DNA of 40,000 nucleotides, taken from assembly GCF_000979455.1 (NCBI RefSeq), contig NZ_JJOY01000052.1, forward strand, positions 1 through 40,000. Reading direction: 5' to 3'. This DNA is from Methanosarcina sp. 2.H.T.1A.6 (lineage in GTDB: Archaea > Halobacteriota > Methanosarcinia > Methanosarcinales > Methanosarcinaceae). The notes beneath the pieces were generated by a model. The model had not been told where the DNA came from and ran no database searches. It saw nothing but the letters and a program-made list of their open reading frames with translations. Numbering within the stretch: position 1 is the stretch's first letter; each line of letters starts with the position of its first letter. This document shows positions 520 through 23,090 of this stretch, in pieces. A program made the translations under genes and the position numbers.

Positions 520-1432
520 GTGTTTGTGCCACCTGATAAGGCTCAGGAGCTTACAGAGTTCTTTCAGGCTCTTAACCCTAATTGATATTCCATTACTTAA
601 ACCTGAGAAAAAGGATCTCTGGTTTTATGGAATTGCTTCTAAAAGGTATGCTCTATACTACTATGAGAATGAAAAAATCAAGTTCATGGAAGATGAAAGG
701 TCTTATAAGCTTCATGGGCTTGGGCATTTAACAAACCCATTTCCTAACTCAATTGAAGATTGGCAGGCTGAAATTTGGCAGGATATTCTTAAACTTCATT
801 ATGGGCTGATTACTGAAAGGGATATTGGGGATAAGTATTCTAATCTGTATGCAATTTCCAGGCTTACTGTTAGCACTTCCAATGTTTTGAACCGGTTTAA
901 GAAATTGAATGTGGGAAAAACTTGGAAAGAACAAATTAAACCTTTTAACTTCTTCCTTGTAGGATTTCAAGTAATTGAGGAAAATAGTAAGGCTGTTAAG
1001 CCTCTGGCTCCATTTACTAAGGATTATCAGAAGATAGTTTATGAGCCATTCATTGATTATGAATCTGGGGAAGTTAAGGAAGGATCTCAATATTTCAAAC
1101 CATTAAGCAGAACCATCTTGCAATATGTTGAGCATATGGAAAACAAGTTTGATGGAGAGAGAGGGGTTTTAAAAAGGAGAAATATTCAAGCTGATGTTTT
1201 AGTTTACATTGGGAAAGAAGCCAACAGCATTGAAGATCAGCCTTTAGATGTAACAGGGGCTCAGGTTTTCATCAATGAGGAAGAGATTAAACAGAAAATT
1301 TTGGCTTTAACCCCTGAAGAGGCAAGGAAACTAGGAATTAAGCATAGAAGCACTTTGAAAAGGATGAAAGATAGGATTATAAATTATGGGGGGATAAGTT
1401 TAAAAACTAAAGAGGTACAAAAGTTAATTTGA
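520..1432 (+). pseudogene. polB: Family-B DNA polymerase, C-terminal remnant (truncated by the IS; carries the same 5-nt deletion as copy X)
   Basis: The 302-aa ORF aligns along its length with the C-terminal ~300 aa of the 899-aa polB ORF at 14712-17411 (DIPLLKPEKKDLWFYGIASKRYALYYYEN...). At 520-585 the upstream frame reads VFVPPDKAQELTEFFQALNPN-stop, as in copy X. Confidence 0.9.
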
Positions 1433-1585
1433 GGGAAAGGTTGGAGAAACTAAGATTTATTACAGGAGTATGCTGAAAAAAATGAAAAGTGGAGTAAGGG
1501 AAGGGGACTTTTTTAAATACGAAAGAGATGAAGAAAATATTAAGTTCTAATTTTCTCAAATAAAAGTAAAAATATTGGTTAAGAT

Positions 1586-2749
1586 TTATGGATTATAGTA
1601 GTCTCTTTGATTGAAATGCGATTTACTATTTATCAATGTCAACTTTGAAAAGTTATTGAAATTGATTGCCGTATTGTAGTTTTCATCAGTTTTATTAGAA
1701 TCCATCCAATATAATATTTTTAATTCTTCAGGTAACAATTCATTAATTTTTTTTACAAAATCAACTGAAAGTTGCAATGATTCTACTAATGATTTTTCAT
1801 TTAACTTGAGCAATGGTTTTAATTCTGATTCTTTAGAAGAGGGGTCGATAAATGCAGAAGCATGTATGTACCTATCGCGGATATTAATAACTTCTTTATA
1901 TTTAGTAAACAATTCTCCAATCTTAGCATCATTTTTTATGTTAGGAAAAAGCTTAAAAAGAACTCGGTCAACGATTTCTTTATCTTGAATTTTTCTTTTA
2001 TTCATATCTAAGTTAATATTTTCATTATAAGACAAATTTTCTGTTATTGATAATAAAAGATCATAAAGATACGCTTCAACAAAGCTTACACACAAAATGA
2101 TTAAAGTCCTATGAAGAGCTCCTAATGAATAAGAATCATGTCTGTTTTGGTTATCTTTGAGATACTCATATTTATCTTGCATATCTTTTATATCCGTCTG
2201 GGAATTTGACAAATTTGTTCTTACATCCAGATAATAATTCCATTGCACTTTCAAATCATTAAAAAGTATATATTCAGGAAATGTTACAGTGATAGGTTGA
2301 TCCAAGCTGAACTGCACCCAATGGTGATCGGTTAAGCAAGATATTCCATAATATTTGTTGACATCAAAAATTTGAGAAATTTCCTTTATTTGAAATAAAG
2401 AGATTTCATTGTTGTCTATTTCTTTTAATCTACATCTTAAGAAAGTGATTACATTACCCAAAAATATATTATCGTATGGCTTCTTGAAATGGGAGTTTTC
2501 TAGACTTGAATTAACATTTGTTGAGATAATTTTGAATACTAAATCAACATCTGTTTTTTTAGGGGGGGATTTTAAGAACGATATTAAAAATCGTATATTA
2601 TCACATTGCATATCTGTATAATGTTTCCCATAGATAATGTTTATAAAGATACCGCATATTGCATATTTATATAATTTCTTATATGTACCCGACGTTTTCT
2701 TAAGTCTACGATGACTAATCAAATCTAATAAAAAAATTTCATCCTTCAT
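1586..2749 (-). CDS. Hypothetical cargo protein, possible C-terminal HEPN-like domain
   Basis: 387-aa ORF in the polB-proximal cargo slot of casposon W. The only recognisable signature is an Rx4H motif (NIRDRYIHASAF) in a helical C-terminal region, preceded by FVEAYLYDLLL. No other family is recognised. Confidence 0.6.
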   Translation of the reverse strand: MKDEIFLLDLISHRRLKKTSGTYKKLYKYAICGIFINIIYGKHYTDMQCDNIRFLISFLKSPPKKTDVDLVFKIISTNVNSSLENSHFKKPYDNIFLGNVITFLRCRLKEIDNNEISLFQIKEISQIFDVNKYYGISCLTDHHWVQFSLDQPITVTFPEYILFNDLKVQWNYYLDVRTNLSNSQTDIKDMQDKYEYLKDNQNRHDSYSLGALHRTLIILCVSFVEAYLYDLLLSITENLSYNENINLDMNKRKIQDKEIVDRVLFKLFPNIKNDAKIGELFTKYKEVINIRDRYIHASAFIDPSSKESELKPLLKLNEKSLVESLQLSVDFVKKINELLPEELKILYWMDSNKTDENYNTAINFNNFSKLTLINSKSHFNQRDYYNP

Positions 2750-2920
2750 AAATTATCTATTTATTTTTAACATATTAAAATATAAAAAGTTGTTTAGTCT
2801 TTGTTAATAAAAATTTGAAAGTAATCCCCTTTTGGAAATTTATATACTGCAAAACAGCGTACAAAAACGGAATTTTTATTATTTATTCTTTATAAAAAAC
2901 AGAGCGATATTTAGTCAAAT

Positions 2921-2992
2921 GAACTTTTAGATATACGGTTGTGCATAAATCTCACAAAACAGCGTTGCGTTTTTTTAAGTTACCTATATCCC
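2921..2992. repeat. Terminal inverted repeat of casposon W (polB-proximal end)
   Basis: ...AACTTTTAGATATACGGTTGTGCATAA...CAGCGTTGCGTTTTTTTAAGTTACCTATATCCC is the reverse complement of the X left TIR at 3007-3078 and resembles 13226-13300. Confidence 0.85.
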
Positions 2993-3006
2993 AAAAGAAG
3001 AGTGCG

Positions 3007-3078
3007 GGGATATAGGTAACTCAAAAAAACGCAACGCGTGTGTACTGATTATGCACAACCGTATATTTTCAAAAGTTA
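3007..3078. repeat. Left terminal inverted repeat of casposon X
   Basis: GGGATATAGGTAACTCAAAAAAACGCAACGC...TTATGCACAACCGTATATTTTCAAAAGTT is inverted with respect to 13226-13300 (X right end) and 2921-2992 (W). Confidence 0.85.
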
Positions 3079-3172
3079 CATCACTAAAAATTAGTTTATT
3101 ATTATAATTCATATTAAATAATTGGTTTAAATTTTTTTGGGTTTAACATTTTCAGTTTAAGATCTAATTAAT

Positions 3173-4345
3173 TCATGTGCTGAGTTCATTGTAATCAACA
3201 TTTTCTAATCCAAACAAAAAATCTAACATAAGGTATGTCCTAATTAAATGATCTTTTCTTCCATACTTTACATATTCGCCATGCATTATCTTATGTCTAC
3301 TTAGTCCAAAGGGGTTTTCAAGCTTTTGTTTTGTGTAAGCTGTTTGAAAAAGAGTATTAAGAATAAAATTATTCCCTATTCCTAAAGCTGCCGACGACAT
3401 CGAACCATTGGGCAATGAATATTCAATGATATTTGGGTCAAATATATCTTTGAAAATTTTGTTTCGATTACTAATTCTCCAATTATTCTTGTTCATTTTG
3501 TCTGTCCAAACTAAACCCTTTCCTTTTTGTATAATGGTAAATTCATTTTGAATAAGGTAATCTGTGAGAATGCCATCTATTTGAGAAATTAATGTTGGAA
3601 TCAAAAAGTTTGAAGGATTATAACTATTGTGAGAGTGTTTCAATAGATTATAACTATCTCTAAATATCTTCATTCTTGGTTTGAATAAAGTGTTCTCTTC
3701 CCAAGATTCAATCATAGAGGCTAATTTCTCAAAATTATTTCTTGAAAAGTAGTTAATAAACTCTTGACGTATTTCTTTTCCCAATTTTCCTGAAGGGTTT
3801 TCGATTGTTCGTGAAAAGTTCAAAATGAAATCATCTTCTAATGAAACCGTTATAAACCAATTATGTTTTTGTAATATAGGTATAATTTTTGAATCAACGC
3901 TATCAACAAAAGAAAGACGTTTATTCACAAAATCAAAAAGCTGTACATTTGTTTTTACCCAATTATCGAAAACTAGTTCTTTCGAAATTAAATTTGATAG
4001 TTTTATATGTGCATCTTCAATTGCCTTGAACATTGAAGGAGAATAAACTTCTGAAAGGCTCTTTTGTGCATCTTCAATTACCTTAAACGTTGAAGGGAAA
4101 ATGACTTCTGAAAACCTCTTATGGGCATCTTCAATTACCTTAAACGTTGAAGGGAAAATGACTTCTGAAAACCTCTTATGGGCATCTTTAATTGTTTTAG
4201 TTGCCAGAGCATTCTGATATTCAGGAGAGTAAATGTTGGTTTTCTCTTTTTTACTATCTAAAGTATTAGTTTCTTCAGATTTTGTATCAATATTCCCTTT
4301 TTTATTATCTGAAGTATTAGTTTCTTCATTTAAGTCGTCAGACAT
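3173..4345 (-). CDS. Hypothetical cargo protein with N-terminal 19-aa tandem repeats; possible C-terminal HEPN-like motif
   Basis: 390-aa ORF with a low-complexity Lys/Glu/Thr-rich N-terminus and repeats IEDAHKRFSEVIFPSTFKV (x2 perfect plus degenerate copies). The C-terminus has GLSRHKIMHGEYVKYG (Rx4H followed by G). It occupies the same slot as 1586-2749 and 13623-14609 but is unrelated in sequence. Confidence 0.65.
   Translation of the reverse strand: MSDDLNEETNTSDNKKGNIDTKSEETNTLDSKKEKTNIYSPEYQNALATKTIKDAHKRFSEVIFPSTFKVIEDAHKRFSEVIFPSTFKVIEDAQKSLSEVYSPSMFKAIEDAHIKLSNLISKELVFDNWVKTNVQLFDFVNKRLSFVDSVDSKIIPILQKHNWFITVSLEDDFILNFSRTIENPSGKLGKEIRQEFINYFSRNNFEKLASMIESWEENTLFKPRMKIFRDSYNLLKHSHNSYNPSNFLIPTLISQIDGILTDYLIQNEFTIIQKGKGLVWTDKMNKNNWRISNRNKIFKDIFDPNIIEYSLPNGSMSSAALGIGNNFILNTLFQTAYTKQKLENPFGLSRHKIMHGEYVKYGRKDHLIRTYLMLDFLFGLENVDYNELST
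4011..4190. repeat. 57-bp coding tandem repeat (about 3.3 copies) inside the 390-aa cargo gene
   Basis: 4068-4124 and 4125-4181 are identical. 4011-4067 is a diverged copy and 4182-4190 starts a partial copy. Confidence 0.9.
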
Positions 4346-4421
4346 ACCTAATAAAGTTTGAATTTAATCTATTTAAGTTATTCTTTATTTAGAGAAAGAT
4401 AAATATCTAATATTAAATTCA

Positions 4422-7089
4422 TTAATATTCATTTACAAGTTTCTTTACTTCTTTCGTGTCCAAGTTCATCTTACTATCTCTCTTAACTCTATCTTTCATT
4501 CTCTTCAATGTACTTCTATGTTTGATTCCGAATTCCCTAGCCTCTTCAGGAGTTAAAGCCAAAATCTTCTGTTTAATCTCTTCCTCATTCACGAAAACTT
4601 GAGCCCCAACAATATCTAAAGGCTGATCTTCAATGCTGTTGGCTTCTTTCCCAATGTAAACTAAACCATCAGCTTGAATATTTCTCCTTTTTAAAACCCC
4701 TCTCTCTCCATCAAACTTGTTTTCAAGATGCTCAACATACTGCAAAATTGTTCTGCTTAATGGTTTGAAATATTGAGATCCTTCCTTAACTTCTCCTGTT
4801 TCATAATCAATAAATGGCTCATAAACTATCTTCTGATAATCTTTTGTAAATGGAGCCAGAGGCTTAACAGCCTTATCATTTTCTTCAATTGCCTGAAATC
4901 CTACAAGAAAGAAGTTAAAAGGTTTAATCTGTTCTTTCCAGTTTTTCCCTTCATTTAGCTTTTTAAACCTGTTCAAAACATTAGAAGTACTAACAGTAAG
5001 CCTGGAAATTGCATAAAGGTTAGAGTACTTATCTTGAATATCCTTTCCAGTAATCTGCCCATAGTGCAGTTTAAGAATATCCTGCCAGATTTCAGCCTGC
5101 CAATCTTCAACCGAGTTAGGGAAAGGGTTTGTTAAATGCCCAAGTCCATGAAGCTTATAAGATCTTTCATCTTCCATGAACCTGATTTTTCCATTCTCAT
5201 AGTAGTATAAAGCATACCTTTTAGAAGCAATACCATAAAACCAGAGATCCTTTTTCTCAGGTTTAAGTAATGGAATATCAATTAGGGTTAAGAGCCTGAA
5301 AGAACTTCGCAAGCTCCTGAGCCTTATCGGGAGGCACAAACACAGAGTCAGTATCCATGTAAGCGTGAATTGCTCCAAGCTCTTTCAACTTGGCTTCAGC
5401 CATTGTTAAGAAAAGCCTGGCTCCTGATGTAATCATAACAGCCAGAAGAGGATGAAAATACTTCCCTGACTTCTCAAACCTGTTTTCTTTTGTAACGAAA
5501 TTCTCAAGCCCATAAACCTGAAACTCACTTTTCCTATCTTCTGGGTTAAGCTCAATAAAGATTCCATAACTGAGAGCATTTACAAGGATCTTGATAGCCT
5601 GGGCTCTGCTTGATAGATGTTGAAATTCAGGATCATTTTTATCTGTCTTTTTTGACCTTTCCTTAATTTTCTGCCTCTCTTCTACAAGAACCTGAACAAT
5701 GTTATCCTTTGACGGATCAATGTCAACTCCAAGAATCCTGGATTTCCTTAACCCCTTCTGTACTTCTTTAGGAATAAATTTTACAGCTTCTTTGATCTTT
5801 GGAGCCTTGCCAGCAAGGAGATATGAGCCTATAACATCCGGTAAAGAGTACCACATCTCAGAGTTAGAACTCAGATAATTGATTCCTACGTTAAACCCTG
5901 TATTATTTCCTTTGTAATCCATCCTTACAGGTAAATTATCATTATCAGGCTGAATCTTGACCATAACAACAAGCTTTTTCCATGTATCCTGTTTCTGAAG
6001 GTCTGAAAGCTTCAGTTTTGAGATAAACTCCCTGGTTTCTTCTGTGATGTCTTGAATTTCCAGGCTCTCAGCTATGATGTATTTCCAGAGGTTCATTTCC
6101 ATTGTAACTGTGGGATACATGCTTGTAAAATCCAGAACATTAACCTTTGTTGGCTCCTTCCTTATTTTACATTCTGTTCTTCCCCCAAAATAGGAAGTCA
6201 TCATGTTTCCAATAGCTGAATCTGGAAACTCTGGATTCATTTCCAAGAATGGCTTAACCCCTAACTGGCTGAGAGCATGTTTTCCAATGGAAGCAGAGCT
6301 AAAGATCTTTGTTATGGGTATATGGATCTGATAAACGTCAAGCTCCTTAACAAGTGCCTTATATACAGCCTGGGTGGTTTCAACATCCTTTACCAGATAT
6401 TCAATATACTTTTCAGTAACCTTTCCATGCTTAACCTCTTTCATCTTCTGAACAGGCGTGTTAAGCTTCTCTCCTGCTCTCTCAAGGGAAATATGGTTTG
6501 ATTGAAGGAGAACTTCAGCCAGCCTTTGAGTATCCAGGAAATATCCTGAAAAATAGCTCTCTCCTTTGTTCTGCTTGGTAGTGGTAAACTTAAAGCTGTT
6601 AGAATAGCCAAGCTTCCTGATGATTACAGGAGGCTTAAAGGGATCCTTTGAGAGGGTAAGGGTAAAGCCTCCTCTGTTCCTTTCTCTTGAATCTCCTGAT
6701 CTTTTAGCTATCCTGCTTATATCAAAAGCCAGGTTATACCCATTGCAGAGGGTTTTAAGCTCAAAGACTTCAGGATAAAATACATTGTCTATAAACTCAT
6801 CCAAGCGGTACAGGTTTAAGTTATGGTTTCTTGAATAGGCTTCCAGTATCTTTATTTCTCTCTCATTAAGGGTAGTTGGATCATGGAATAAACCATCATG
6901 CTGAATAACTCCATCCTGGTAAATCTGGAAGTATCCGATCTTGAAATTTTGATACTGGTCGGTTGTGGTTTCAGTATCAAAAACCAGTACCCTGTTATGC
7001 CTGAGAGAAGTATCATAACGCCTAAAGCTCCTGTATCCTTCTTTTTTCTCAAGCCTCTGAGTATATCCTCTGACTGCAACTTTAGACAT
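4422..7089 (-). pseudogene. polB: Family-B DNA polymerase of casposon X, split by a frameshift near 5280-5290
   Basis: Two overlapping ORFs (5278-7089 and 4422-5378) together cover the full intact Y polB. Relative to Y (AACCCCTATAAAATTGAT), X reads AACCCTAATTGAT, a 5-nt deletion that gives LNPN-stop. All Exo and Pol motifs are otherwise present. Confidence 0.85.
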
Positions 7090-7414
7090 TTTGCATCATC
7101 TCATTTCCAACATCAATTAGTTGAGTTCCTAATTCTGTTAGTAAAGCACCGATAGATACAATCTGAAAAGCTCTCTTTTGTTCAGGAGAGGCATTCCCAG
7201 ATCTGGCTTTTGGGCTTAGCTTATTCTGTTCCCTTGTTATCTTGGAATGGCAGTTTTTACAGAGAGGCTGAACCTGGTCTGAATTGTTCCGCCCATAGGG
7301 ATGATGCATTTCAATTACATCTGGGTCATCTTCCCCACAGATAACACAGCAAAGAGAAGTTTTTCGGTTTCTCTTCTGTTTGTTCAAAGTTTTCTTATAT
7401 GCTTCTTTATCCAT
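7082..7414 (-). CDS. HNH endonuclease (casposon core)
   Basis: CCVICGEDDPDVIEMHHPYGRNNSDQVQPLCKNCHSKIT is an HNH/zinc-finger signature. Its stop overlaps the polB start by 8 nt, as in copy Y. Confidence 0.85.
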   Translation of the reverse strand: MDKEAYKKTLNKQKRNRKTSLCCVICGEDDPDVIEMHHPYGRNNSDQVQPLCKNCHSKITREQNKLSPKARSGNASPEQKRAFQIVSIGALLTELGTQLIDVGNEMMQNV

Positions 7415-7426
7415 AGTTTCCCCTCC

Positions 7427-8065
7427 TCAATGCTGATAGATTTCCAAAAATTCAGGCTCTTCCTGGGCTTCCAGGATCTCATAGAGCTTATCAAGGTCAG
7501 TTTCAAAATGGTGGACTTTGCCTTCAGCATCCACTATTTGAATATCCTTGAACTTGGCAAGAACAGAAGGATCATTGTTTTTTGTAGCCTTGTAAACACT
7601 GGCAAAATATTCTCCAATCAAAGACCTATCCTTAGAACTGGCTGTAACAATCGTTTTTTGTCCTTCTGTGGAGTAGATCAGCATATTGACCTGGATAGTA
7701 TCGGCTTTTGTGACCTTCCAGGTTCCTCCTGACTTGTACAGGTTCTTTCCAAGATGCTTGACTGCAAATTCGGGTCTTTTGCCTATTTTTTCAAGTACAG
7801 AAGAAAGGTTTTCTCCTTTTCACATTTTCCTTGAAATTTGAAGAGATAGGGTTCTATCTCTCTTATCCTGGGCTGAAAGAGTTTTCCAGGCTACCTGGCT
7901 TAGATCAAAATCTCCGATCTTGAGTTTTCTAAGTTGGCTGAGGCTCCGATCAGGGAAAAACTTGTGTTTCCTGATGATTTCTTTTGCATATTTTGTATCT
8001 CTGGACTGAGCCTTGAGCCATTCTCCATAGGTTCTACATTCTTTGGAAAATCTTGGTCTGCTCAT
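7427..8065 (-). pseudogene. Casposon core gene ORF212 homolog interrupted by a single in-frame TGA (7820-7822)
   Basis: ORFs 7820-8065 and 7427-7684 are in the same frame, and the frame is open between them. Y reads GAA ATG AGA AAA GGT where X reads AAA ATG TGA AAA GGA. Confidence 0.75.
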
Positions 8066-10417: not shown

Positions 10418-10448
10418 AAATATGTATGTTTTTACTGAAAAGTGTAAA

Positions 10449-13385: not shown

Positions 13386-13425
13386 CACGCTTAAACATAA
13401 ATAGTTTTTATAAATCAAGTTTAAT

Positions 13426-14609: not shown

Positions 14610-14711
14610 TTGAAAGATATATCCATCTTACTAATATTTTAAAATTTGTTCTCAATCTCTTGATGAATAAAAACCCTAATTGTTTCAAAGTTCGGAATAG
14701 TTCATTATCCT

Positions 14712-17384
14712 TCAAAAGAGAGAAATTAATTTCTTTACTTCTTTAGTTTTCATATTGATTTTCCCATCTTTTATTATCTTATCCTTTATCTTTTTTAAAG
14801 TGCTCCGGTATTTTATTCCAAATTCCCTAGCTTCTTTTGGGCTTATGTTTAAAATTTTTTGTTTAATCTCTTCCTCATTAATGAAAACTTGAGATTTGGT
14901 AACATCCAAAGGCTGATCCTCAATATTATTGGCTTCTTTCCCAATGTAAACTAACCCATCAGCTTGAATATGTCTTCTCTCTAAAACCCCAATATTCCCA
15001 TCAAACTTATTTTCAAGATGTTCAACATATTGTAAAATCGTCCTGCTCAATGATTTGAAATATTGAGATCCTTCCTTAACTTCTCCTTTTTCATAATCAA
15101 TGAATGGCTCATAAACTATCTTCTGATAGTCTTTAGTAAATGGAGCCAGAGGCTTGACAGCCTTATAATCTTCTTCAACTGCCTGGAATCCTACAAGGAA
15201 GAAGTTAAAAGGCTTAATCTGGTCTTTCCAGTTTTTCCCCTCATTCAGTTTCTTAAACCTGTTCAATACATTGGAAGTACTAACAGTAAGCCTAGAAATT
15301 GCATAAAGGTTAGAATATTTTTCTTCAATATCCCTTTCAGTAATCAGCCCATAATGAAGTTTCAGAATATCCTGCCAGATTTCAGCCTGCCAATCCTCAA
15401 CTGAATTAGGAAATGGGTTTGTTAAATGCCCAAGCCCATGAAGCTTGTAAGACCTTTCATCTTCCATGAATCTGATTTTTTCATTCTCATAGTAGTACAG
15501 AGCATACCTTTTAGAAGCAATTCCATAAAACCATAGATCCTTTTTCTCAGGCTTAAGCAATGGAATATCAATTTTATAGGGGTTAAGAGGCTGAAAGAAC
15601 TCTACAAGCTTCTGAGCCTTTTCAGGAGGCACAAACACAGAATCAGTATCCATGTAAGCGTGAATAGCTCCAAGTTCTTTTAACCTGGCTTCAGCCATTG
15701 TTAAGAAAAGCCTGGCTCCTGAAGTAATCATAACAGCCAGGAGAGGATGAAAATACTTGCCTGACTTCTCAAACCTGTTTTCCTTTGTAACAAAATTCTC
15801 AAGCCCATAAACCTGAAAATCACTTTTCTTATCTTCTGGGTTAAGCTCAATAAAGATTCCATAACTGAGGGCATTTACAAGAATTTTGATAGCCTGGGCT
15901 CTGCTTGATAGATGCTGATATTCAGGATCATTTTTATCGATCTTTTTCAATTCCTGCTTAATCCTCTGCCTCTCTTCTACAAGAACCTGAACAATATTAT
16001 CCTTTGATGGGTCAATATCAATTCCAAGAACCCTGTTTTTCCTTAACCCCTTCTGTACGCCTTCAGGAACAAATTTTATAGCCTCTATGATCTTTGGAAC
16101 CTTACCAGTAAGAAGGTATGAGCCTATAACATCCGGTAAAGAATACCACATCTCAGAGGCAGAACTCAGATAATTGATTCCTACGTTAAACCCTGTATTA
16201 TTCCCTTTATAATCCATTCTTACAGGCAAAATATCATTATCAGGCTGAATCTTGACCATAACAACAAGCTTTTTCCATGTATCCTGTTTCTGAAGGTCTG
16301 AAAGCTTCAGTTTTGAAATAAATATCTTTGTTTCTTCTGTAATGTCCTGAATTTCCAGGCTTTCAGCTATGATGTATTTCCAGAGGTTCATTAACATTGT
16401 AACTGTAGGGTACATGCTTGTAAAATCAAGAACTGTAACCTTTGTTGGCTCTTTCCTGATTTTACATTCTGTTCTTCCCCCATAATAAGAAGTCATCATG
16501 TTCCCGATAACTGAATCTGGAAAATCTGGATTCAGTTCTAGGAAAGGTTTAACCCCTAACTGCTCAAGAGCATATTTCCCAATGGAAGCCTCACTAAAGA
16601 TTTTTGTTATGGGTATATGGATCTGGTAAACGTCAAGCTCCTTAACAAGCTTTTCATACACAGCCTGAGTAGTTTCAACATCTTTTATCAGATAATCAAT
16701 ATACTTTTCAGTAACTTTTCCATGTTCAATTCCTTTCATTTTCTTAACAGGAGTATTGAGCCTTTCTGCGGCTTTTTCAAGGGAAATACGCCTTTCCTGA
16801 AGGAGAACTTCAGCCAACCTTTGAGTATCTAGGAAATAGCCTGAGAAATGACTCTCTCCCTTGTTCTGCTTGGTTGTGGTAAACTTAAAGTTGTTAGAGT
16901 ATCCAAGTTTTCGGATAATTATAGGAGGGTTGAAAGGATCATCTGAAAGAGTAAGAGTAAAGCCTCCTCTATTCCTTCCCCTTGAATCTCCTGATTTTTT
17001 GGCTATTCTGCTAAGGTCAAAAGCCAGGTTATACCCATTGCAGAGGGTCTTAAGTTCAAAGACTTCAGGATAAAACACATTGTCTATGAACTCATTCAGG
17101 GAATACAGGCTTATGTTATGCTTTTTGGAATAGGCTTCCAGTATCTTTATTTCTCTTTCATTCAGGATAGTTGGATCATAGAATAAACCATCATGCTGAA
17201 TAACTCCATCTTGGTAGATCTGGAAGTATCCTATCTTAAAATTCTGATACTGGTCTATAGTGGTTTCAGTATCAAAAACCAGTACTCTTGAATGCCTCAG
17301 AGGAGTATCATAAAGCCTAAAGCTCCTATACTCTCCTTTTTTCTCAAGTCTTTGAGTATATCCCCTGACTGCAACTTTAGACAT
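14712..17384 (-). CDS. polB: Family-B DNA polymerase (casposon Y), intact
   Basis: ExoI VLVFDTETT, ExoII NLAFDLSR, ExoIII YLIKDVETT, PolA LDFTSMYP, PolB KILVNALSYG, PolC YMDTDSVF. The start is set at MSKVAVRGY (as in copy X) rather than the upstream Met at 17411. Confidence 0.93.
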   Translation of the reverse strand: MSKVAVRGYTQRLEKKGEYRSFRLYDTPLRHSRVLVFDTETTIDQYQNFKIGYFQIYQDGVIQHDGLFYDPTILNEREIKILEAYSKKHNISLYSLNEFIDNVFYPEVFELKTLCNGYNLAFDLSRIAKKSGDSRGRNRGGFTLTLSDDPFNPPIIIRKLGYSNNFKFTTTKQNKGESHFSGYFLDTQRLAEVLLQERRISLEKAAERLNTPVKKMKGIEHGKVTEKYIDYLIKDVETTQAVYEKLVKELDVYQIHIPITKIFSEASIGKYALEQLGVKPFLELNPDFPDSVIGNMMTSYYGGRTECKIRKEPTKVTVLDFTSMYPTVTMLMNLWKYIIAESLEIQDITEETKIFISKLKLSDLQKQDTWKKLVVMVKIQPDNDILPVRMDYKGNNTGFNVGINYLSSASEMWYSLPDVIGSYLLTGKVPKIIEAIKFVPEGVQKGLRKNRVLGIDIDPSKDNIVQVLVEERQRIKQELKKIDKNDPEYQHLSSRAQAIKILVNALSYGIFIELNPEDKKSDFQVYGLENFVTKENRFEKSGKYFHPLLAVMITSGARLFLTMAEARLKELGAIHAYMDTDSVFVPPEKAQKLVEFFQPLNPYKIDIPLLKPEKKDLWFYGIASKRYALYYYENEKIRFMEDERSYKLHGLGHLTNPFPNSVEDWQAEIWQDILKLHYGLITERDIEEKYSNLYAISRLTVSTSNVLNRFKKLNEGKNWKDQIKPFNFFLVGFQAVEEDYKAVKPLAPFTKDYQKIVYEPFIDYEKGEVKEGSQYFKSLSRTILQYVEHLENKFDGNIGVLERRHIQADGLVYIGKEANNIEDQPLDVTKSQVFINEEEIKQKILNISPKEAREFGIKYRSTLKKIKDKIIKDGKINMKTKEVKKLISLF

Positions 17385-17709
17385 TTTGCACCATCTCATT
17401 TCCAAGATCAATTAGCTGAGTTCCTAATTCTTTCAGTAAAGCACCAATAGAAACTAACTGAAAGGCTCTCTTTTGTTCAGGAGAAGCGTTTTTAGACCTA
17501 ACTTTTGGGCTGAACTTATTCTGTTCCTTTGTTATCTTGGAATGGCAGTTTTTGCAGAGAGACTGAACCTTGTCTGAATTGCTCCTTCCATAGACATGAT
17601 GCATTTCAATAACTTCTGGATCATCTTCCCCACAGACAACACAGCAAAGAGAAGGGCTCCCATTTCTCTTCTGTTTGTTCAAACTTTTTTGATAAGTTTC
17701 CTTGTCCAT
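17377..17709 (-). CDS. HNH endonuclease (casposon core)
   Basis: CCVVCGEDDPEVIEMHHVYGRSNSDKVQSLCKNCHSKIT. It overlaps the polB start by 8 nt. Confidence 0.85.
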   Translation of the reverse strand: MDKETYQKSLNKQKRNGSPSLCCVVCGEDDPEVIEMHHVYGRSNSDKVQSLCKNCHSKITKEQNKFSPKVRSKNASPEQKRAFQLVSIGALLKELGTQLIDLGNEMVQNV

Positions 17710-17721
17710 AGTTTCACCCCC

Positions 17722-18360
17722 TTAGTGCTGATAAATTTCCAAAAACTCTGGCTCTTCCTGGGCTTCCAGGATCTCATAGAGCTTATCAAGGTCGGTTTCA
17801 AAGTGGTGGACTTTGCCTTCAGCATCCACTAGTTGAACATCTTTGAACTTGGCAAGAACTGAGGGATCATTGTTTTTTATTGCCTTCTGAACGCTGGCAA
17901 AATATTCTCCAATTAAAGACCTATCCTTAGAACTGGCTGTAACAATCGTTTTTTGTCCTTCTGTGGAATAGATCAGCATATTAACCTGGATAGAATCGGC
18001 TTTTGTAACCCTCCAGTTCCCTCCTGACTTGTACAGGTTCTTCCCAAGGTGTTTAACTGCAAATTCTGTCCTTTTGCCTATTTTTTCAAGCACAGAAGAA
18101 AGATTTTCACCTTTTCTCATTTCTCTTAAAATTTGGAAAGATAGATTTCTATCTCTCTTATCCTGGGCTGAAAGAGTTTTCCAGGCTGTCTGGCTTAGAT
18201 CAAAATCGCCTATCTTCGGATTTCTAAGCTGGCTGAGGCTTTTATCAGGGAAAAATTTGTGTTTCCTGATGATTTCTTTTGCATATTTTGTATTCCTAGG
18301 CTGAGCCTTGAGCCATTCTCCATAAGTTCTGTAGTCTTTGGAAAATCTTGGGCGGCTCAT
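17722..18360 (-). CDS. Conserved casposon core protein of unknown function (ORF212)
   Basis: 212-aa ORF translationally coupled to the upstream RHH gene (ATGA overlap). A homolog lies at 7427-8065. No motif is recognised. Confidence 0.75.
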   Translation of the reverse strand: MSRPRFSKDYRTYGEWLKAQPRNTKYAKEIIRKHKFFPDKSLSQLRNPKIGDFDLSQTAWKTLSAQDKRDRNLSFQILREMRKGENLSSVLEKIGKRTEFAVKHLGKNLYKSGGNWRVTKADSIQVNMLIYSTEGQKTIVTASSKDRSLIGEYFASVQKAIKNNDPSVLAKFKDVQLVDAEGKVHHFETDLDKLYEILEAQEEPEFLEIYQH

Positions 18361-18497
18361 CTGTCAGCCTCCATTATTCTGATAAAAGCTGTTCTCATAA
18401 CTTCAGCCTGAGAGCATCCGTATTCTTCTGCTTTCTGTTCCAGTTTCTCCTTAAGGTAAGGAGATAATGTTATCAAAACTCTGTCTTTTGTGGTCAT
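18357..18497 (-). CDS. Ribbon-helix-helix (CopG/Arc-like) protein, 46 aa
   Basis: My own translation gives MTTKDRVLITLSPYLKEKLEQKAEEYGCSQAEVMRTAFIRIMEADR, homologous to 8062-8211. Confidence 0.7.
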   Translation of the reverse strand: MTTKDRVLITLSPYLKEKLEQKAEEYGCSQAEVMRTAFIRIMEADR

Positions 18498-18600
18498 GTA
18501 GCTCACAAAGAACAGTATGCTCAGATCTTACTTATGTACAGAATTGAGTATAACTTTAAGTATAAGTTTGATGTATATTTTATATATACTTGGGATTAAT

Positions 18601-19485
18601 ATGAAGAAGAAAGAGTATGACTTTGACACAGAAATAAAGAATTATCTTGTCCAAAAAGGGTATGCAAGAAGGCGGCAACTCATAGAAGACCTAATGAAAG
18701 CACACAAAAATGAAAGAGGATATAGCCTCAAGAGTATAAACCGCAAACTGGACAATTTGATTAATCAAGGAATAATTATAAGTCTCAAATACTCCGATTT
18801 TGAAAAATTAGGAATAGAAGATGCTGATAAAAGAGCCAGTTACCTAACCTTAAAAAATATATCCAAAATAAAGGAGCATATGGATAAGATTTTAGAAAGG
18901 CTCGCTTCAAAAGAACCCACGAAGCAAAAAATGGCTTTAAAAGAGATTGCCCTTTATGAGCAAGTATATGTTTTAACTCCTGAACAGTTGGATTTAGTGG
19001 TAAAGCAATTTGATAAGGGTATTGATAAGGAAACTATAGATGATGACCTTGCTAATACGCTATTACTTTTATTATACACATATATTTTGAAAAAAGGTAT
19101 CGAACCAGCTAATAAAATAAAAACAATCGACCTGTTAGTAAAACTGCTAGATAAGTATCCTGCTCCTGTTCCAAGGCAAGTAAATCTAAGAACGCACATC
19201 ATTTATCTTCTTGGGCATTATGGGCATAAAGCTGTAATTGAAAGGTTTATAAAAGATGCAAGAACCTTACAAGATTTTTCACCCATAGAAAACGTTTACA
19301 GTACCGAATACACAGCTAATCTTATTGAAGAACATAGAGAAGAACTTTACAAACTGCAAGAAGATTTAGCAATAGAAGGAAAAGAGAATGCTTCTCAGTT
19401 TGTTTCCAATATCAGAAGTGATGTTCTAATTTCTTTGGGCTTGCGTAAAAACCCTTTTGCTAAAAAGGAGGATGATTCTTGGTGA
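18601..19485 (+). CDS. Winged-helix protein with helical-repeat C-terminus (casposon core)
   Basis: Homolog of 8313-9203. The start is set at MKKKEYDFDTE, and the stop overlaps the cas1 start. Confidence 0.7.
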   Translation: MKKKEYDFDTEIKNYLVQKGYARRRQLIEDLMKAHKNERGYSLKSINRKLDNLINQGIIISLKYSDFEKLGIEDADKRASYLTLKNISKIKEHMDKILERLASKEPTKQKMALKEIALYEQVYVLTPEQLDLVVKQFDKGIDKETIDDDLANTLLLLLYTYILKKGIEPANKIKTIDLLVKLLDKYPAPVPRQVNLRTHIIYLLGHYGHKAVIERFIKDARTLQDFSPIENVYSTEYTANLIEEHREELYKLQEDLAIEGKENASQFVSNIRSDVLISLGLRKNPFAKKEDDSW

Positions 19486-20699
19486 AACTTCTTCTTCTGA
19501 ATGGTCACGGCATAAATATGCATGTTGATGGAGCCAGGCTCCATATTAAAGATGGAAGATTTTCAACTACTGAAGAGCCTCAAGAATACATATTTTCTCC
19601 GAAAAGGATTGATATTGACGGCATTATCATATATGGAAAGAGTGGGAACCTTACCTTAGAGGCTGTTAGATGGCTTATTAAACATAATGTTCAGGTTTCT
19701 ATTTTAGATTGGAATGGCAAGCTCTTAACCACAATGCTTCCTCCTGAAAGTACCAATGTAAAAACAAAGTTTTCTCAGTATCATGCTTTTGAGGATAAGG
19801 AAGTAAGGCTTGAGATAGCAAAGAAGTTCATTGAAGCCAAATTTTACAAATCTAAGGCTGTTCTTGATTTCCTGAGCCAAAGGTATCCTGAAATTAAGTT
19901 TGATATTTCGGATGGACTCACAAAACTAAAAGATGTAAAAAGCACTAGGGAAATTTTGGGAGTAGAGGGAACCTTAGCCGGTAAATACTGGACTGAGTTT
20001 TCAAAGGCTGTTCCAAAGGAATACGATTTCTGTAACAGAATAGACCAGTACAGCCGATCTATGAATTCTGGAGATATGGTAAACACCATGCTCAATTATG
20101 GTTATTCTTTGCTTGAGGCTGAATGTTTGAGAGCCATAAATACTGTAGGGTTAGATCCTCATGTAGGGTTTTTACATGAAATGACACCAAGCAAGAACAG
20201 TTTAGCCTATGATCTTCAGGAGCCTTTCAGATTTCTTGTAGATCTGGCAGTAATCAGCCTGGTTGAAAGTGGGGCTATGGAAAGTAAGGATTTCATAAGG
20301 ACAGAAAATTACAATCTCAGGTTAAAGCCTAGTGGAGCCAAAAAGGTTGTTAATGAGTTTACCAATATGCTGAATAAAAAGGTAAGCTACCAGGGAAAAG
20401 AAAGCACATGGAGTTATGTTATCTTTCTGAAGGTTAGAGAATTAGCCCATTATCTTACTAGCAAAAAAGAAAAACTGGATTTTGTTAAGCCTGAATATGA
20501 AATTGAGAGAATTGATTCTTATGATATAAGGCAAAAGATTCTCAATATTTCTTATGTTGATTGGAAGAAATTAGGGTTTTCTAAAGGTACATTGCATTAT
20601 ATGAAACAGAACGCCAAGAGCGATAAGCCATTTACTCTTAATGCTCACGTTCTGGAAAGGGTAAATAAGTGGGAAGCATTGGTTTCAAGTCAAAGGTAA
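19479..20699 (+). CDS. cas1: Cas1-family casposase (solo Cas1)
   Basis: 406 aa with NYGYSLLEAECLRAIN, HVGFLHEM and AYDLQEPFRFLVD. AGGAGGA precedes a TTG/GTG start. Confidence 0.93.
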   Translation: MVKLLLLNGHGINMHVDGARLHIKDGRFSTTEEPQEYIFSPKRIDIDGIIIYGKSGNLTLEAVRWLIKHNVQVSILDWNGKLLTTMLPPESTNVKTKFSQYHAFEDKEVRLEIAKKFIEAKFYKSKAVLDFLSQRYPEIKFDISDGLTKLKDVKSTREILGVEGTLAGKYWTEFSKAVPKEYDFCNRIDQYSRSMNSGDMVNTMLNYGYSLLEAECLRAINTVGLDPHVGFLHEMTPSKNSLAYDLQEPFRFLVDLAVISLVESGAMESKDFIRTENYNLRLKPSGAKKVVNEFTNMLNKKVSYQGKESTWSYVIFLKVRELAHYLTSKKEKLDFVKPEYEIERIDSYDIRQKILNISYVDWKKLGFSKGTLHYMKQNAKSDKPFTLNAHVLERVNKWEALVSSQR

Positions 20700-20730
20700 A
20701 ATGTGTATGTTTTTACTGTAAAATGTAAAA

Positions 20731-20875
20731 ATGTAAAATTTACAGTAAAATAGTAAAAATGCATCAAGAGAAGTTGTAAAATTTACAGTAAAATAGTAAA
20801 ACAGTATCAAGAGAAAGTGTAAAATTTACAGTAAAATTGTAAAACGATAAAAAGAGCAATTGTAAAAAAGTAACG
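20731..20875. repeat. 43-bp tandem repeat, about 3.4 copies, filling the cas1-RT intergenic space (iteron-like)
   Basis: Units at 20731-20773, 20774-20816 and 20817-20859, with a partial unit from 20860. The unit is the same family as 10449-10595 (TGTAAAATTTACAGTAAAATAGTAAAAC...ATCAAGAGAA). Confidence 0.9.
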
Positions 20876-20876
20876 A

Positions 20877-22385
20877 TTAACTATGTGAAGCAGAAGGTCT
20901 TTTAGATGCATCAATTAAAACTGATTCAATTTTAAATTTCCCACATTCATTTATTTTTTTAATTGTTTCTTCTAAATATTTAAGCATCTGGGTCTTGTTT
21001 TGATTTGTTGGTCTTTTAAAGTACTCTTCTTTTTCATCTTTAAACCACATGACCAAAAATAAACCTGATTTGGAAGGACTTGCTTTCAAATATAATGGTA
21101 ATTGTTTAGTTAGACCATGTTCCAACTCTTCATTATGTGCCAATTTAAACTCTGCACAAACATTTACAGGAATGTTACCTTTTATTGTAACCAGGAATTT
21201 GAAGTCAAGTTTTCCGATTCCTTCATCTGTTTCTCTTAAAACATGTATCCCAAAAGGTAGTAAATTTCGACAAAAGAAAATATGAATTGTAGGTTGAATT
21301 TTTGATTCTTTTTTGGGAACAGCTGGTATCTTATACTTTTTTCCATCCATCTCTACCTCACGAGCCTCATCCCAAAATGGTTCAGTCCATCTTCGATCCT
21401 CTATATAGTGTTTCAATTCTGTAATGGTAGTAGCTATGGCTTTTAAAAAATCACTTTCTGACTCAATAATATTATTCGCATCAACTGGATGGAAATAATG
21501 TTTTTTCTCAAGAGATCTTACAATAAGTTCGCTGTCTCTTGAATTTTTTAGATTTTCATCATAACTTAGCCAATTAAAACCTTTAAGTTTCTCTATTAAC
21601 GGATTTGCAAAGTCAGGGTCTACCATTTTAGCAAATGCCAGTTCACCACAAATCTTTTCTTTGAAAAATGGATCCTTCTCTCTATTCTCTGTTTCAGCTC
21701 CATTTTTCTGAATATTATGCACTATTGCTCTTAGAATTTTCTTCTTGCGCCTACCAATACTTACCTTGTCATTAACAACCAAGCCGGTTACTTTTTGCTG
21801 TGAACCTCTTGAAAGTACCCTAGTTTTTTCTTCATTGATAACAAAGCCATTTCTTTCAATAATTTCTATTATTTTTTGCTTGTGCATTGGAAGTTTATAG
21901 GAACCTGAAATCGTGATGTCGTCCGCATATCTTGAATATCGAAAATTTCTTCTTGTACAATAATTGTCGATTTCATAGTCAAGGTCTACAGTAGATAGGT
22001 TAGCGAGCATTGGACTAGTTGGTGCCCCTTGAGGTAATTTCCAATGATATGTGCATAAATCAGAAAGCGACCACGCAATTTTTTTGGTATATCCAGCGGA
22101 CTTAAAGATATAGTAGACAGATCTAAAACTTATACTTGGGAAATAATCCTTTATATCAATCCCTAAAACTAGATCTTGACCAACGTGAATCGAAGCATTT
22201 GTCAAAATTGATCTGTCTGGAATAAAACCATGAGCTAAATTTCCAGCATTCAATTTATACAAAATATTATTTAGAATCCATCTTTGAATATTCTTCATTT
22301 TTTTTGATGGAGCGTTGATTTCTCTTAAACCACCATTTTTTTTAGGTATTTTAAATGTAGAATAAGCCTTCTCTTTATTTGACAA
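20877..22385 (-). CDS. Retron-type reverse transcriptase fused to a C-terminal RecB/Cas4-like PD-(D/E)xK nuclease-like domain (the frame stays open upstream to 22595)
   Basis: RT motifs ILTNASIHVG (NAxxH), LPQGAPTSPMLANL, YSRYADDITIS and SQQKVTGLVVNDK (VTG) closely parallel my recollection of retron RTs such as Ec86. The C-terminal ~230 aa has GKLDFKF (D), CAEFKLA (ExK) and KQLPLYL (QxxxY). The listed start is a TTG. Confidence 0.85.
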   Translation of the reverse strand: MSNKEKAYSTFKIPKKNGGLREINAPSKKMKNIQRWILNNILYKLNAGNLAHGFIPDRSILTNASIHVGQDLVLGIDIKDYFPSISFRSVYYIFKSAGYTKKIAWSLSDLCTYHWKLPQGAPTSPMLANLSTVDLDYEIDNYCTRRNFRYSRYADDITISGSYKLPMHKQKIIEIIERNGFVINEEKTRVLSRGSQQKVTGLVVNDKVSIGRRKKKILRAIVHNIQKNGAETENREKDPFFKEKICGELAFAKMVDPDFANPLIEKLKGFNWLSYDENLKNSRDSELIVRSLEKKHYFHPVDANNIIESESDFLKAIATTITELKHYIEDRRWTEPFWDEAREVEMDGKKYKIPAVPKKESKIQPTIHIFFCRNLLPFGIHVLRETDEGIGKLDFKFLVTIKGNIPVNVCAEFKLAHNEELEHGLTKQLPLYLKASPSKSGLFLVMWFKDEKEEYFKRPTNQNKTQMLKYLEETIKKINECGKFKIESVLIDASKRPSASHS

Positions 22386-22595
22386 AAAAAGTCTAATTTG
22401 TTTTGATGAGGAATTTGATAAGTTACAAAAATGATCAATATCATATATATAAGGTAATTTTTTGGACTTTAAATTTTTGAAAGATTTAAAATTTTCGTCA
22501 TATTCTTCTTTGCTTAGTTCTGGAATAATACCTTCTTCAAAATAATTATCAAATAAAATTTTTAACTTTTCATTTTTTGTTAATTTGTTTATTAC

Positions 22596-22892
22596 TTATC
22601 CCACCGAATATGACTTAAAATTCAGTTAATAGTATGGATAGTTGCCCTCACAAAATCGCTTGCGATTTTATGGTGCATGAAGTTCGTGAAGTTCATGCAC
22701 TTTTCGGTCAAGTTTACCTTTGCCTTAGTATGACATTTGCATGGCGTAACACCACACATATCTCCCTGACGAGAGATAATTCAGATCTGAGAGCAACTAA
22801 TTGTAGTAAGACAACTTATTATAAATATTGTACTAAATTGATCTTAAAGAATTTCATTTTTTCAAATGACCATTATAAAAATAGAAATTAAT
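22596..22892 (-). ncRNA. Candidate retron non-coding RNA (msr/msd) region upstream of the RT
   Basis: About 300 bp with no convincing ORF lies between the RT frame and the inner TIR. It contains stable hairpins at 22652-22669 (7-bp stem), 22673-22700 (9-bp stem) and 22759-22778 (6-bp stem), plus a 10-nt palindrome at 22781-22790. No a1/a2 repeats or branching G could be identified by eye. Confidence 0.3.
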
Positions 22893-22975
22893 TTTGGTTA
22901 GGGCAAATTTTCAAAATTAACGGTTGTGCATAATCGCTACAAAACAGTGTACACTTTTTTAACCTTTTATATAGT
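22893..22975. repeat. Inner TIR-like module at the right end of Y (X/W-type TIR lacking the terminal TACCTATATCCC tip)
   Basis: ...GGTTAGGGCAAATTTTCAAAATTAACGGTTGTGCATAATCGCTACAAAACAGTGTACACTTTTTTAACC resembles 13226-13288 and is inverted relative to 13426-13491. Confidence 0.6.
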
Positions 22976-23006
22976 TAGCATTATAAAATGTGATTTTAGA
23001 CTAGGG

Positions 23007-23076
23007 CAACTTTAAGAAAAACAGTGCTGTTAGAATTTTCCTGTAGCGTACACTTTTTTGAAGATACCTATATCCC
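23007..23076. repeat. Right terminal inverted repeat of casposon Y (outer)
   Basis: CAACTTTAAGAAAAACAGTGCTGTTAGAATTTTCCTGTAGCGTACACTTTTTTGAAGATACCTATATCCC is the reverse complement of 13315-13385. Confidence 0.85.
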
Positions 23077-23090
23077 ATAACTTTAGTGCG
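23077..23090. repeat. Target-site duplication of casposon Y, right copy (ATAACTTTAGTGCG), overlapping the 3' end of the tRNA-Leu-like sequence
   Basis: Identical to 13301-13314. Its last 4 nt (TGCG) are the complement of the tRNA 3' terminus ...CGCA. Confidence 0.85.

Follow-up and report, generated by a model that had tools for sequence, protein, structure and literature searches.

How does a stack of mobile elements come to stand end to end beside one tRNA sequence, and which of its members arrived separately? The CRISPR adaptation machinery is proposed to descend from casposons, and nothing in nature comes closer to a proto-CRISPR array than tandem stacks of them with duplicated target sites in between. 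The question is raised here by Methanosarcina sp. 2.H.T.1A.6, in a window of 40,000 nucleotides (contig NZ_JJOY01000052.1, positions 1 to 40,000) that holds a casposon stack of two complete elements, Y and X, and a remnant, W, lying end to end beside a tRNA-Leu sequence. It is very probable that the region is a family-2 casposon array, composed of self-synthesizing Cas1-integrase DNA transposons and built by serial insertion on the tRNA side. The anatomy of the locus, the casposase identity of its Cas1 proteins and its gradient of decay can be read from the locus directly.

Anatomy of the array

The main parts of the array and its surroundings are as follows.

About 517-2992: W, remnant of a third, X-like casposon
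2993-3006: spacer T2 between the W and X tips, 14 bp, AAAAGAAGAGTGCG (reverse complement CGCACTCTTCTTTT)
3007-13300: X, full-length but decaying family-2 casposon
13301-13314: spacer T1, left copy of the Y TSD, shared with X, ATAACTTTAGTGCG (reverse complement CGCACTAAAGTTAT)
13315-23076: Y, intact family-2 casposon
23077-23090: right copy of the Y TSD (T1), identical to 13301-13314
23086-23170, minus strand: pseudo-tRNA-Leu(TAA), the array 'leader' (ARAGORN), sharing 5 nt with the last TSD
23757-23770: unoccupied potential target at the 3' end of the intact tRNA-Leu, CGCACTGAGTTTGT
23771-23855, minus strand: intact tRNA-Leu(TAA) (Rfam tRNA, 54.5 bits; ARAGORN)

The tip GGGATATAGGTA occurs exactly at 2981-2992 (minus), 3007-3018 (plus), 13289-13300 (minus), 13315-13326 (plus) and 23065-23076 (minus), five matches against 0.12 expected, a number reached in 0 of 100 shuffles. 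Facing tips are exactly 14 bp apart at both the W/X and the X/Y junction, and the TIRs are imperfect and about 70-80 bp long; the boundaries that had been proposed from inspection, with TIRs of about 70 bp and gaps of 13-14 bp, are thus recovered by alignment, with the gaps now fixed at 14 bp. The two TIRs of X are identical at 31 of 31 positions at their tips and then imperfectly matched to about 75 nt, and those of Y (13315-13384 and 23007-23076) are 91% identical over the first 43 nt. The casposons have a GC content of 34-35%, against 41% in the flank.

The sequences flanking the elements differ in how well they agree. Those of Y form a perfect TSD (13301-13314 against 23077-23090, 14/14), which begins with CGCA in the tRNA 3' end, as does the published 14-bp casposon target (PMC4779613, PMC6977970). 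Those of X match at 9 of 14 positions, T2 differing from T1 at the other five and keeping the CGCA(CT) end, and W has one flank only.

Identity of the Cas1 proteins

Judged by homology, the Cas1 proteins of X and Y are casposases. The Cas1 of Y matches the crystallised Methanosarcina mazei casposase 6OPM over residues 2-406 with an E value of 8e-259 and about 92% identity, that of X is full length and 89% identical to it, and each cas1 gene adjoins a gene for a family-B polymerase (Pfam DNA_pol_B / DNA_pol_B_2). Pfam and NCBIfam do label these proteins Cas1, as they would if the genes served CRISPR adaptation or belonged to degenerate CRISPR-Cas loci, but the probability of that reading is negligible: the best CRISPR Cas1 match to the Y protein, 4N06, reaches only 6e-42, polB, TIRs and a TSD surround the genes, and no CRISPR array, CRISPR-like repeat or other cas gene, cas2 included, was found in the 40-kb window, flank ORFs among them. 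With neither cas2 nor a repeat-spacer array at hand, a CRISPR association is refuted, and the same combination of 6OPM match, polB neighbours, TIRs and TSD upholds the element type given in the earlier note.

Elements X and Y

The features of Y, the element nearest the tRNA, are these.

13623-14609, minus strand: RES-domain protein (Pfam)
14712-17411, minus strand: polB, 899 aa, full length (Pfam family-B polymerase)
17377-17709, minus strand: putative HNH
17722-18360, minus strand: ORF212
18357-18506, minus strand: RHH-like ORF, 49 aa
18517-19485, plus strand: 322-aa ORF
19479-20699, plus strand: cas1, 406 aa
20728-20867: three 43-bp repeats
20877-22385, minus strand: retron-type RT
22634-22891, plus strand: 85-aa ORF

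X, whose core is collinear with that of Y and in the same orientation, holds the following.

3173-4345, minus strand: repeat protein, 390 aa
4422-5378 and 5278-7089, minus strand: split polB (Pfam DNA_pol_B_2)
7082-7414, minus strand: putative HNH
7427-8065, minus strand: ORF212 with one stop
8256-9203, plus strand: 315-aa ORF
9197-10417, plus strand: cas1 (Pfam Cas_Cas1, 1.3e-67)
10447-10573: three 43-bp repeats
11504-12889, plus strand: transglutaminase-core protein (Pfam Transglut_core)

The putative HNH genes of both elements give weak matches under the Pfam cutoff (E 0.004-0.007); the order of HNH and the small genes and their conservation between X and Y agree with the published family-2 map. 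Family-profile searches (Pfam, NCBIfam) returned no family for the 49-aa RHH-like ORF, nor did Pfam, PADLOC or NCBIfam match ORF212, the 322-aa ORF or the 390-aa repeat ORF of X. The RT of Y belongs with the retron-clade enzymes (NCBIfam retron_St85_RT, 255.5 bits against a cutoff of 235; PADLOC RT_III-A, 5e-98), its C-terminal ~230 aa corresponding to DUF8371 (precomputed Pfam), and an Rfam scan at the gathering threshold detected neither a retron RNA nor any other RNA family within the casposons, including the surroundings of 20877-22900.

The passage from an intact Y to a decaying X that was first noticed from the sequence is confirmed: the genes of Y are full length, and in X polB is frameshifted once, near 5283, and ORF212 is interrupted by a single in-frame stop, whereas its Cas1 remains intact. 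X and Y share a collinear core of 6.15 kb (4440-10592 against 14730-20873), and since this core is only 86.6% identical, the cargo on both sides of it unrelated and the TIR subtypes distinct, the two are best regarded as independent arrivals. Their collinearity and common orientation would also be expected if the array were a tandem segmental duplication of one casposon made by unequal recombination, an exceedingly improbable origin given that X and Y are of different lineages, that their cargo is wholly different at both ends and that the junctions are precise, tip-14 bp-tip; divergence and cargo effectively refute it.

The pair itself has been described. Krupovic et al. (2016, Genome Biol Evol, Fig. 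2; PMC4779613) mapped Met2HT1A3-C1 and -C2 in tandem at a tRNA-Leu in Methanosarcina sp. 2.H.T.1A.3,.6,.8 and.15, the former with a retron-like RT and a RES protein as cargo and the latter with a transglutaminase and a broken polB. On matching gene content and layout, Y appears to be Met2HT1A3-C1 and X Met2HT1A3-C2, their layout and cargo being the same. The newness that the earlier note had seen in the stack is accordingly lost; the main text of that paper, however, treats two elements, and W, its insertion sequence and the pseudogene tRNA are absent from it.

Remnant W

At the left end of the window the array is broken up, and the following features remain.

1-516, minus strand: right part of an IS5-family insertion sequence, interrupting the W polB
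107-466, minus strand: transposase ORF of this IS (N-terminal part of a DUF4096 transposase, Pfam E 1.3e-22)
524-1432, plus strand: C-terminal polB fragment of W, codons about 591-896 (~300), inverted relative to X and Y
1586-2749, minus strand: 387-aa ORF of W, absent from X and Y
About 2915-2992: the sole surviving TIR of W, ending in TACCTATATCCC

The description of W as IS-disrupted and inverted is borne out, as the IS cuts its polB and the fragment runs against those of X and Y. To count it as a third collinear core was an overstatement, W consisting of ~300 inverted polB codons, the 387-aa ORF and one TIR. In the near-identical contig JJOZ01000022.1 the IS holds a nested IS21 (rve and IstB) and parts polB codons 564-586 from 591-896. 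In locus L001 the 8.4 kb left of the window contain neither a second W TIR nor a copy of T1 or T2. Further debris in L001 comprises cas1 codons 1-10, the 3' end of a cas1 and the polB stretch of codons 564-586.

W would represent an insertion of its own, to judge from its single TIR, its divergent piece of polB and the cargo peculiar to it, its other end having been lost. It is closest to X, in polB (90.7% identical by blastn, against 85.6% to Y) as in its TIR (97% identical to those of X over 31-39 nt), and might on that account be a rearranged or duplicated piece of X, made up of the 3' part of polB and a TIR, rather than a third independent casposon. We consider this quite improbable: the polB of W is 9% off that of X, the 387-aa ORF, for which Pfam, PADLOC and NCBIfam gave no match, is missing from both X and Y, W has its own tip-14 bp-tip junction, and more debris follows further left in L001.

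The tRNA-Leu sequences and the W/X spacer

The sequence on which the array ends had been described as tRNA-Leu-like, and so it is in that ARAGORN calls a tRNA there and that it shares 91% identity with the intact tRNA-Leu nearby over the 3' 44 nt. As a tRNA it fails: it has two acceptor mismatches with the acceptor and anticodon stems broken, the Rfam tRNA model finds no match at 23086-23170 (the best being tRNA-Sec, 20.4 bits, E 0.35), and its minimum free energy structure (-18.3 kcal/mol) lacks a cloverleaf, whereas the neighbouring tRNA-Leu folds into one at -33.4 kcal/mol. No TIR follows that intact tRNA-Leu, 684 bp away, and the site at its 3' end is empty. Reuse of one site, the central claim of the earlier note, is sustained insofar as X and Y are of different lineages, but T2 is not T1 and the adjoining tRNA is a pseudogene.

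Two observations sit uneasily with strictly serial insertion. Identical TSDs are predicted, yet T2 differs from T1 at 5/14 positions, and the leader is a pseudo-tRNA while the intact tRNA-Leu stands vacant. Since the TIRs on either side have stayed the same, mutational decay is rejected as the source of the T1/T2 difference. One alternative, which we regard as rather unlikely, is that the W-T2-X segment arose in some other way than by serial insertion at this tRNA. T2 would then be an old TSD that an element brought along from a previous site, or two arrays would have been fused when an X-like casposon at a T2-type site recombined with another at the tRNA-Leu site. It would account for spacers that differ at 5 of 14 positions next to X TIRs identical at 31 of 31 (Fisher p 0.0016) and for the distribution of the two sequences, tRNA-Leu(TAA) being natively followed at its 3' side by T1-like sequence in loci L030 and L043 and T2 standing beside no tRNA in 78 loci; moreover, MetMaz-C1 has reached a tRNA-Leu-like site in vivo with its old TSD and not the local 14 bp (PMC10359463). 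Against it, the W and X tips stand exactly 14 bp apart with the CGCACT end preserved between them, and no donor site with T2 was found.

Other arrays and alleles

Tip-to-tip junctions elsewhere were located by a tip-regex scan, as a palindrome scan missed junctions between different tip types. Six further arrays (L004, L008, L010, L011, L012 and L024) show the polarity seen here, with full polB and cas1 in the tRNA-proximal element and fragmentary or frameshifted genes in the distal one, so that an intact proximal and a decayed distal element were found in 7/7 arrays examined, the window included (binomial p 0.008). Through these arrays the polarity extends to other genera. Within seven other arrays the TSDs are identical, unlike T1 and T2. 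The orthologous tRNA-Leu/MBL251 locus in L043, L030, L029 and L007 holds different casposons whose tips are others and whose TSDs are T1-like but not those of the window. The tips GGGTAATAGG and GGGATATATACA mark heterotypic neighbour elements. Exact-protein look-ups of the flanking ferredoxin turned up no allele of this very locus that was empty or held a single element, and all of the contigs with an identical ferredoxin (8/8) also carry Y.

Proposed assembly

Serial insertion on the tRNA side, the preferred reading, would proceed as follows. The casposase would recognise about 30 bp of the T-arm/acceptor end of tRNA-Leu together with the CGCA that opens the 14-bp target, cut the strands 14 bp apart and join the 3'-OH ends of the element (...TATATCCC-3'), after which gap filling would duplicate the 14 bp. 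The recognition sequence would be kept only at the tRNA-side copy of the TSD, and a newcomer would therefore land between the tRNA and the previous element, older elements being displaced outward and then decaying. Three features of this scheme were established for the 92%-identical M. mazei enzyme alone and are presumed by analogy to apply here: the need for 30 bp of tRNA-Leu in addition to the TSD (Hickman et al., 2020, PMC6977970), the cut staggered by 14 bp, and the growth of tandems, demonstrated in vivo by insertion into an existing TSD (NAR 2023, PMC10359463). Beguin et al. (2016, PMC5137440) proposed that a new casposon goes in on the tRNA side, upstream of its predecessor. For this locus we infer that W came earliest, X before Y, and Y last, the latter being intact with a perfect TSD and X bearing two inactivating lesions; W would later have been broken by the IS5-family element and scrambled by internal rearrangement.

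A wider extension of this scheme is tentative. Stacks across the Methanosarcinaceae may be CRISPR-like polarised records, newest and intact next to the tRNA-derived leader with older elements decaying outward. At this locus T2 may be a TSD carried from a previous site, and a displaced pseudo-tRNA might have served as landing pad while the intact tRNA stayed empty.

The tandem pair and the mode of stack formation are already published, and since the proto-CRISPR point was made for this locus in 2016 and backed by biochemical studies of 2016 and 2020 and by in vivo work of 2023, no new principle follows. The additions are small, namely remnant W with the debris beyond the window, the T2 mismatch, the pseudogene tRNA beside an empty intact tRNA-Leu and the polarity of six other arrays. 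What specialists may put to modest use is a stack depth of at least three elements, a polarity that recurs in other genera, and one spacer that misfits simple serial insertion.

Comparison with known systems

Close relatives are the M. mazei family-2 casposons (MetMaz-C1, MetMaz1FA1A3-C2), which share a Cas1 of about 92% identity, the terminal octamer TATATCCC, the CGCA-starting 14-bp TSD and the tRNA-Leu 3'-end target, but belong to another species cluster, carry other cargo and come from natural strains reported without tandem insertions. The casposon of Aciduliprofundum boonei at tRNA-Pro likewise uses a target made of the TSD segment and upstream T-psi-C-arm sequence (PMC5137440); it differs in its 15-bp TSD, its 18-bp upstream requirement, its tRNA and its occurrence as a single element in the genome. 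Tn7-like elements at attTn7 and genomic islands at tRNA genes are alike in that repeated site-specific insertion gives an island of live and dead elements, although the transposase chemistry and target recognition of Tn7-like elements are others. In CRISPR arrays, too, a leader-like sequence and a duplicated unit guide a Cas1-family integrase, there Cas1-Cas2, with the newest unit at the leader and the oldest decaying at the far end, whereas the casposon stack is without Cas2, short repeats, crRNA and interference genes, and its units are 10-kb autonomous transposons.

Elements, termini and target site

The tip positions proposed in the earlier note were reproduced exactly: the window contains five copies of the terminal 12-mer of the terminal inverted repeat (TIR), GGGATATAGGTA, against about 0.12 chance matches expected. 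Facing tips are separated by exactly 14 bp at 2993-3006 and at 13301-13314, and the 14 bp that follow the last tip (23065-23076) enter a tRNA-Leu(TAA) called by ARAGORN. The features are as follows.

1-516: part of an IS5-family element (DUF4096)
about 517-2992: W, a remnant; about 300 codons of polB (524-1432, inverted relative to X and Y; identity 90.7% to X, 85.6% to Y), a 387-aa ORF without family match (1586-2749) and one TIR only, X-type, ending at 2992
2993-3006: T2, the W/X spacer
3007-13300: X, full-length but decaying; left cargo a 390-aa protein with 19-aa repeats, right cargo a transglutaminase-core protein
13301-13314: T1, the X/Y spacer
13315-23076: Y, intact; in order, RES-domain protein, family-B polymerase (899 aa), small HNH protein, 212-aa ORF, 49-aa RHH-like ORF, 322-aa ORF, Cas1 (406 aa), retron-type reverse transcriptase (RT, 502 aa), 85-aa ORF
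23086-23170, minus strand: pseudo-tRNA-Leu(TAA)
right flank: glycosyltransferases, metallo-beta-lactamase (MBL)-fold protein, disaggregatase-type protein, TPR proteins

One identical 14-mer, ATAACTTTAGTGCG, occupies 13301-13314 and 23077-23090; read on the tRNA strand it is CGCACTAAAGTTAT, the published form of the Methanosarcina casposon target, in which the tRNA 3'-end CGCA is followed by AT-rich sequence (PMC4779613, PMC6977970). The GC content of the casposons is 34-35%, versus 41% for the flank.

The reading of these elements as casposons in the earlier note is supported. From end to end, Y Cas1 matches PDB 6OPM at about 92% identity (E 8e-259), whereas its best CRISPR-associated Cas1 match reaches 6e-42, and the rest of the window holds no cas gene and no CRISPR-like array. 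6OPM is the M. mazei casposase, for which site-specific integration at the tRNA-Leu 3' end has been characterised, and the element terminus TATATCCC is the octamer of the crystal structure of that enzyme (PMC6977970).

Gene content and origin of X and Y

X and Y have in common a 6.15-kb core (4440-10592 and 14730-20873) of 86.6% nucleotide identity, their cargo is unrelated at both ends, and their TIRs are of different subtypes (...AAAAAAACGCAACGC in X versus ...AAAAAAGTGTACGC in Y); they thus represent two separate arrivals and not a duplication. In X, polB carries one frameshift near 5283 and ORF212 one in-frame stop; cas1 is full length.

Several smaller features were also observed. The cargo of Y is defence- or toxin-like, with a retron-clade RT (20877-22385, minus strand) that scores above the NCBIfam retron_St85_RT cutoff and has a DUF8371 domain in its C-terminal ~230 aa, and the RES-domain protein (13623-14609, minus strand); both genes were already listed in PMC4779613. 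A scan with Rfam gave no msr/msd RNA in the casposons. Directly 3' of cas1 lie three tandem 43-bp repeats, conserved between X (10447-10573) and Y (20728-20867), with the consensus AAATTGTAAA(A)TTTTACAGTAAAAT(T/A)GTAAAAC.GTATCAAGAG, which might act as iterons bound by a protein, or as a regulatory or origin region. Tandem 57-bp (19-aa) repeats at 4006-4193 lie within the 390-aa cargo protein of X (ORF 3173-4345). Y also has a degenerate second copy of the terminal-repeat unit, set in from each true end by about 100-130 bp (13437-13513 and 22869-22973), the inner part of which is similar to X-type TIRs (ACGGTTGTGCA...), and it looks as if these termini had been duplicated or re-capped.

The remnant W

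The earlier note described three collinear cores, and this did not hold for W, in which an inverted polB piece, the 387-aa ORF and a single TIR are present and no third core. W is nevertheless what remains of a genuine casposon similar to X, and it has cargo of its own. Its 387-aa protein is confined to a handful of sister assemblies, a narrow spread consistent with the Methanosarcina strain group of Krupovic et al. (2016).

The sister contig JJOZ01000022.1 (GCA_000979475.1) is 100% identical over 8.7 kb, differing only around the 57-bp repeats of X, in copy number, and reaches 8.4 kb further left than the window. In it the IS carries a nested IS21 and is inserted in the W polB between codons about 586 and 591, and in the 8.4 kb left of the window a second W TIR was not found. 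To the left of the IS, 2.5-4.3 kb from window position 1, lies debris in which polB codons 564-586 are joined in the same orientation to codons 1-10 of a cas1, together with two unrelated ORFs (one of 182 aa, the other a cytidine deaminase gene) and 90 bp from a cas1 3' end; this material beyond the IS5/IS21 is either scrambled W or a fourth element. A distal decayed element of Methanolobus sp. Soudan_28 (related locus L024, 678-2315) has, beside a tip, an arrangement like that of W, in which part of a cas1 runs straight into an inverted C-terminal piece of polB, and such fusions may be a recurrent rearrangement.

Polarity of the array

The casposase would recognise the tRNA T-arm and acceptor sequence plus CGCA, cut with a 14-bp stagger and join the TIR 3' ends, after which repair would duplicate the 14 bp. 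Only the target-site duplication (TSD) adjoining the tRNA would keep the recognition sequence, so that new elements should join an array on its tRNA side. The decay gradient reported in the earlier note is real and fits such growth: Y, next to the tRNA, is intact and flanked by a perfect TSD, two lesions are present in X, and W is wrecked.

The Cas1 protein was used to retrieve 78 related loci. Besides the window, fifteen loci (L004, L008-L012, L020, L024, L037, L039, L041, L058, L062, L072, L080), from Methanosarcina, Methanolobus, Methanococcoides and related MAGs, contain tip-to-tip junctions in which the spacer is 13-14 bp long. Many of these junctions join casposons with unlike tip types (GGGATATAGG, GGGTAATAGG, GGGATATATACA). 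In many loci the "tRNA" beside the tip is just a 3' fragment, left uncalled by ARAGORN. When counting was restricted to arrays with an identifiable leader side, that is, the side of the tRNA-derived sequence (L004, L008, L010, L011, L012, L024), full polB and cas1 were present in the proximal element and the distal one was fragmentary or frameshifted in all six, or 7/7 with the window (p 0.008), which on a small scale confirms empirically what had been predicted in print.

The W/X spacer

Simple serial insertion at a single target does not account for T2. Of the 14 positions of its reverse complement, CGCACTCTTCTTTT, 5 depart from T1, whereas the two TIRs of X are identical at 31 of 31 (Fisher p 0.0016). 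In seven other arrays the TSDs do not differ from one junction to the next. At orthologous loci tRNA-Leu(TAA) is natively flanked by a T1-like sequence, and in none of the fetched loci was T2 found beside a tRNA. The two most likely explanations are that T2 is an old TSD carried over, as has been reported once in vivo (PMC10359463), or that it arose by recombination between casposons at two sites.

The tRNA leader

The tRNA adjoining the array is a pseudogene: 23086-23170 fails the Rfam tRNA model, its acceptor stem contains two mismatches, its anticodon stem is disrupted, and its fold (MFE -18.3) is not a cloverleaf. An intact tRNA-Leu(TAA) with an unoccupied CGCA site lies 684 bp away (23771-23855), beyond a 65-aa ferredoxin gene (23267-23464). 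At four orthologous loci (L043, L030, L029, L007) it is the intact tRNA, beside the same MBL-fold gene, that borders the casposon; in two other Methanosarcina genomes (L032, L052) the intact tRNA is likewise empty and the 3' copy occupied. The simplest reading is that the array became separated from the functional tRNA through a later integration or duplication, and cohabitation of casposons with tRNA-Leu-integrating elements has been described (PMC4779613). The closest homologue of the ferredoxin segment (L066, 9173-9612, a Methanobacteriota MAG; 78% DNA identity) lies within or beside a casposon remnant, a hint that this segment, too, may be cargo of a mobile element.

Relation to described casposons

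The observation in the earlier note is largely confirmed, but both the locus and the phenomenon had been published before. Judged by content and layout, Y and X appear to match the tandem tRNA-Leu casposons Met2HT1A3-C1, with its retron-like RT and RES protein, and Met2HT1A3-C2, with its transglutaminase and fragmented gene (Krupovic et al., 2016; PMC4779613). The target was shown to comprise the TSD and an upstream tRNA segment, and each newcomer was proposed to insert upstream of its predecessor (Beguin et al., 2016; PMC5137440), the M. mazei enzyme requires the TSD plus 30 bp of tRNA-Leu (Hickman et al., 2020; PMC6977970), and in vivo a mini-casposon entered an existing TSD to give a tandem (2023; PMC10359463). 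Because of that 2016 locus description and these three mechanism papers, repeated use of one site is established knowledge; what this analysis adds, of modest specialist interest, is the remnant W, the polarity seen again in other arrays, the deviating spacer T2 and a leader that is a pseudo-tRNA.
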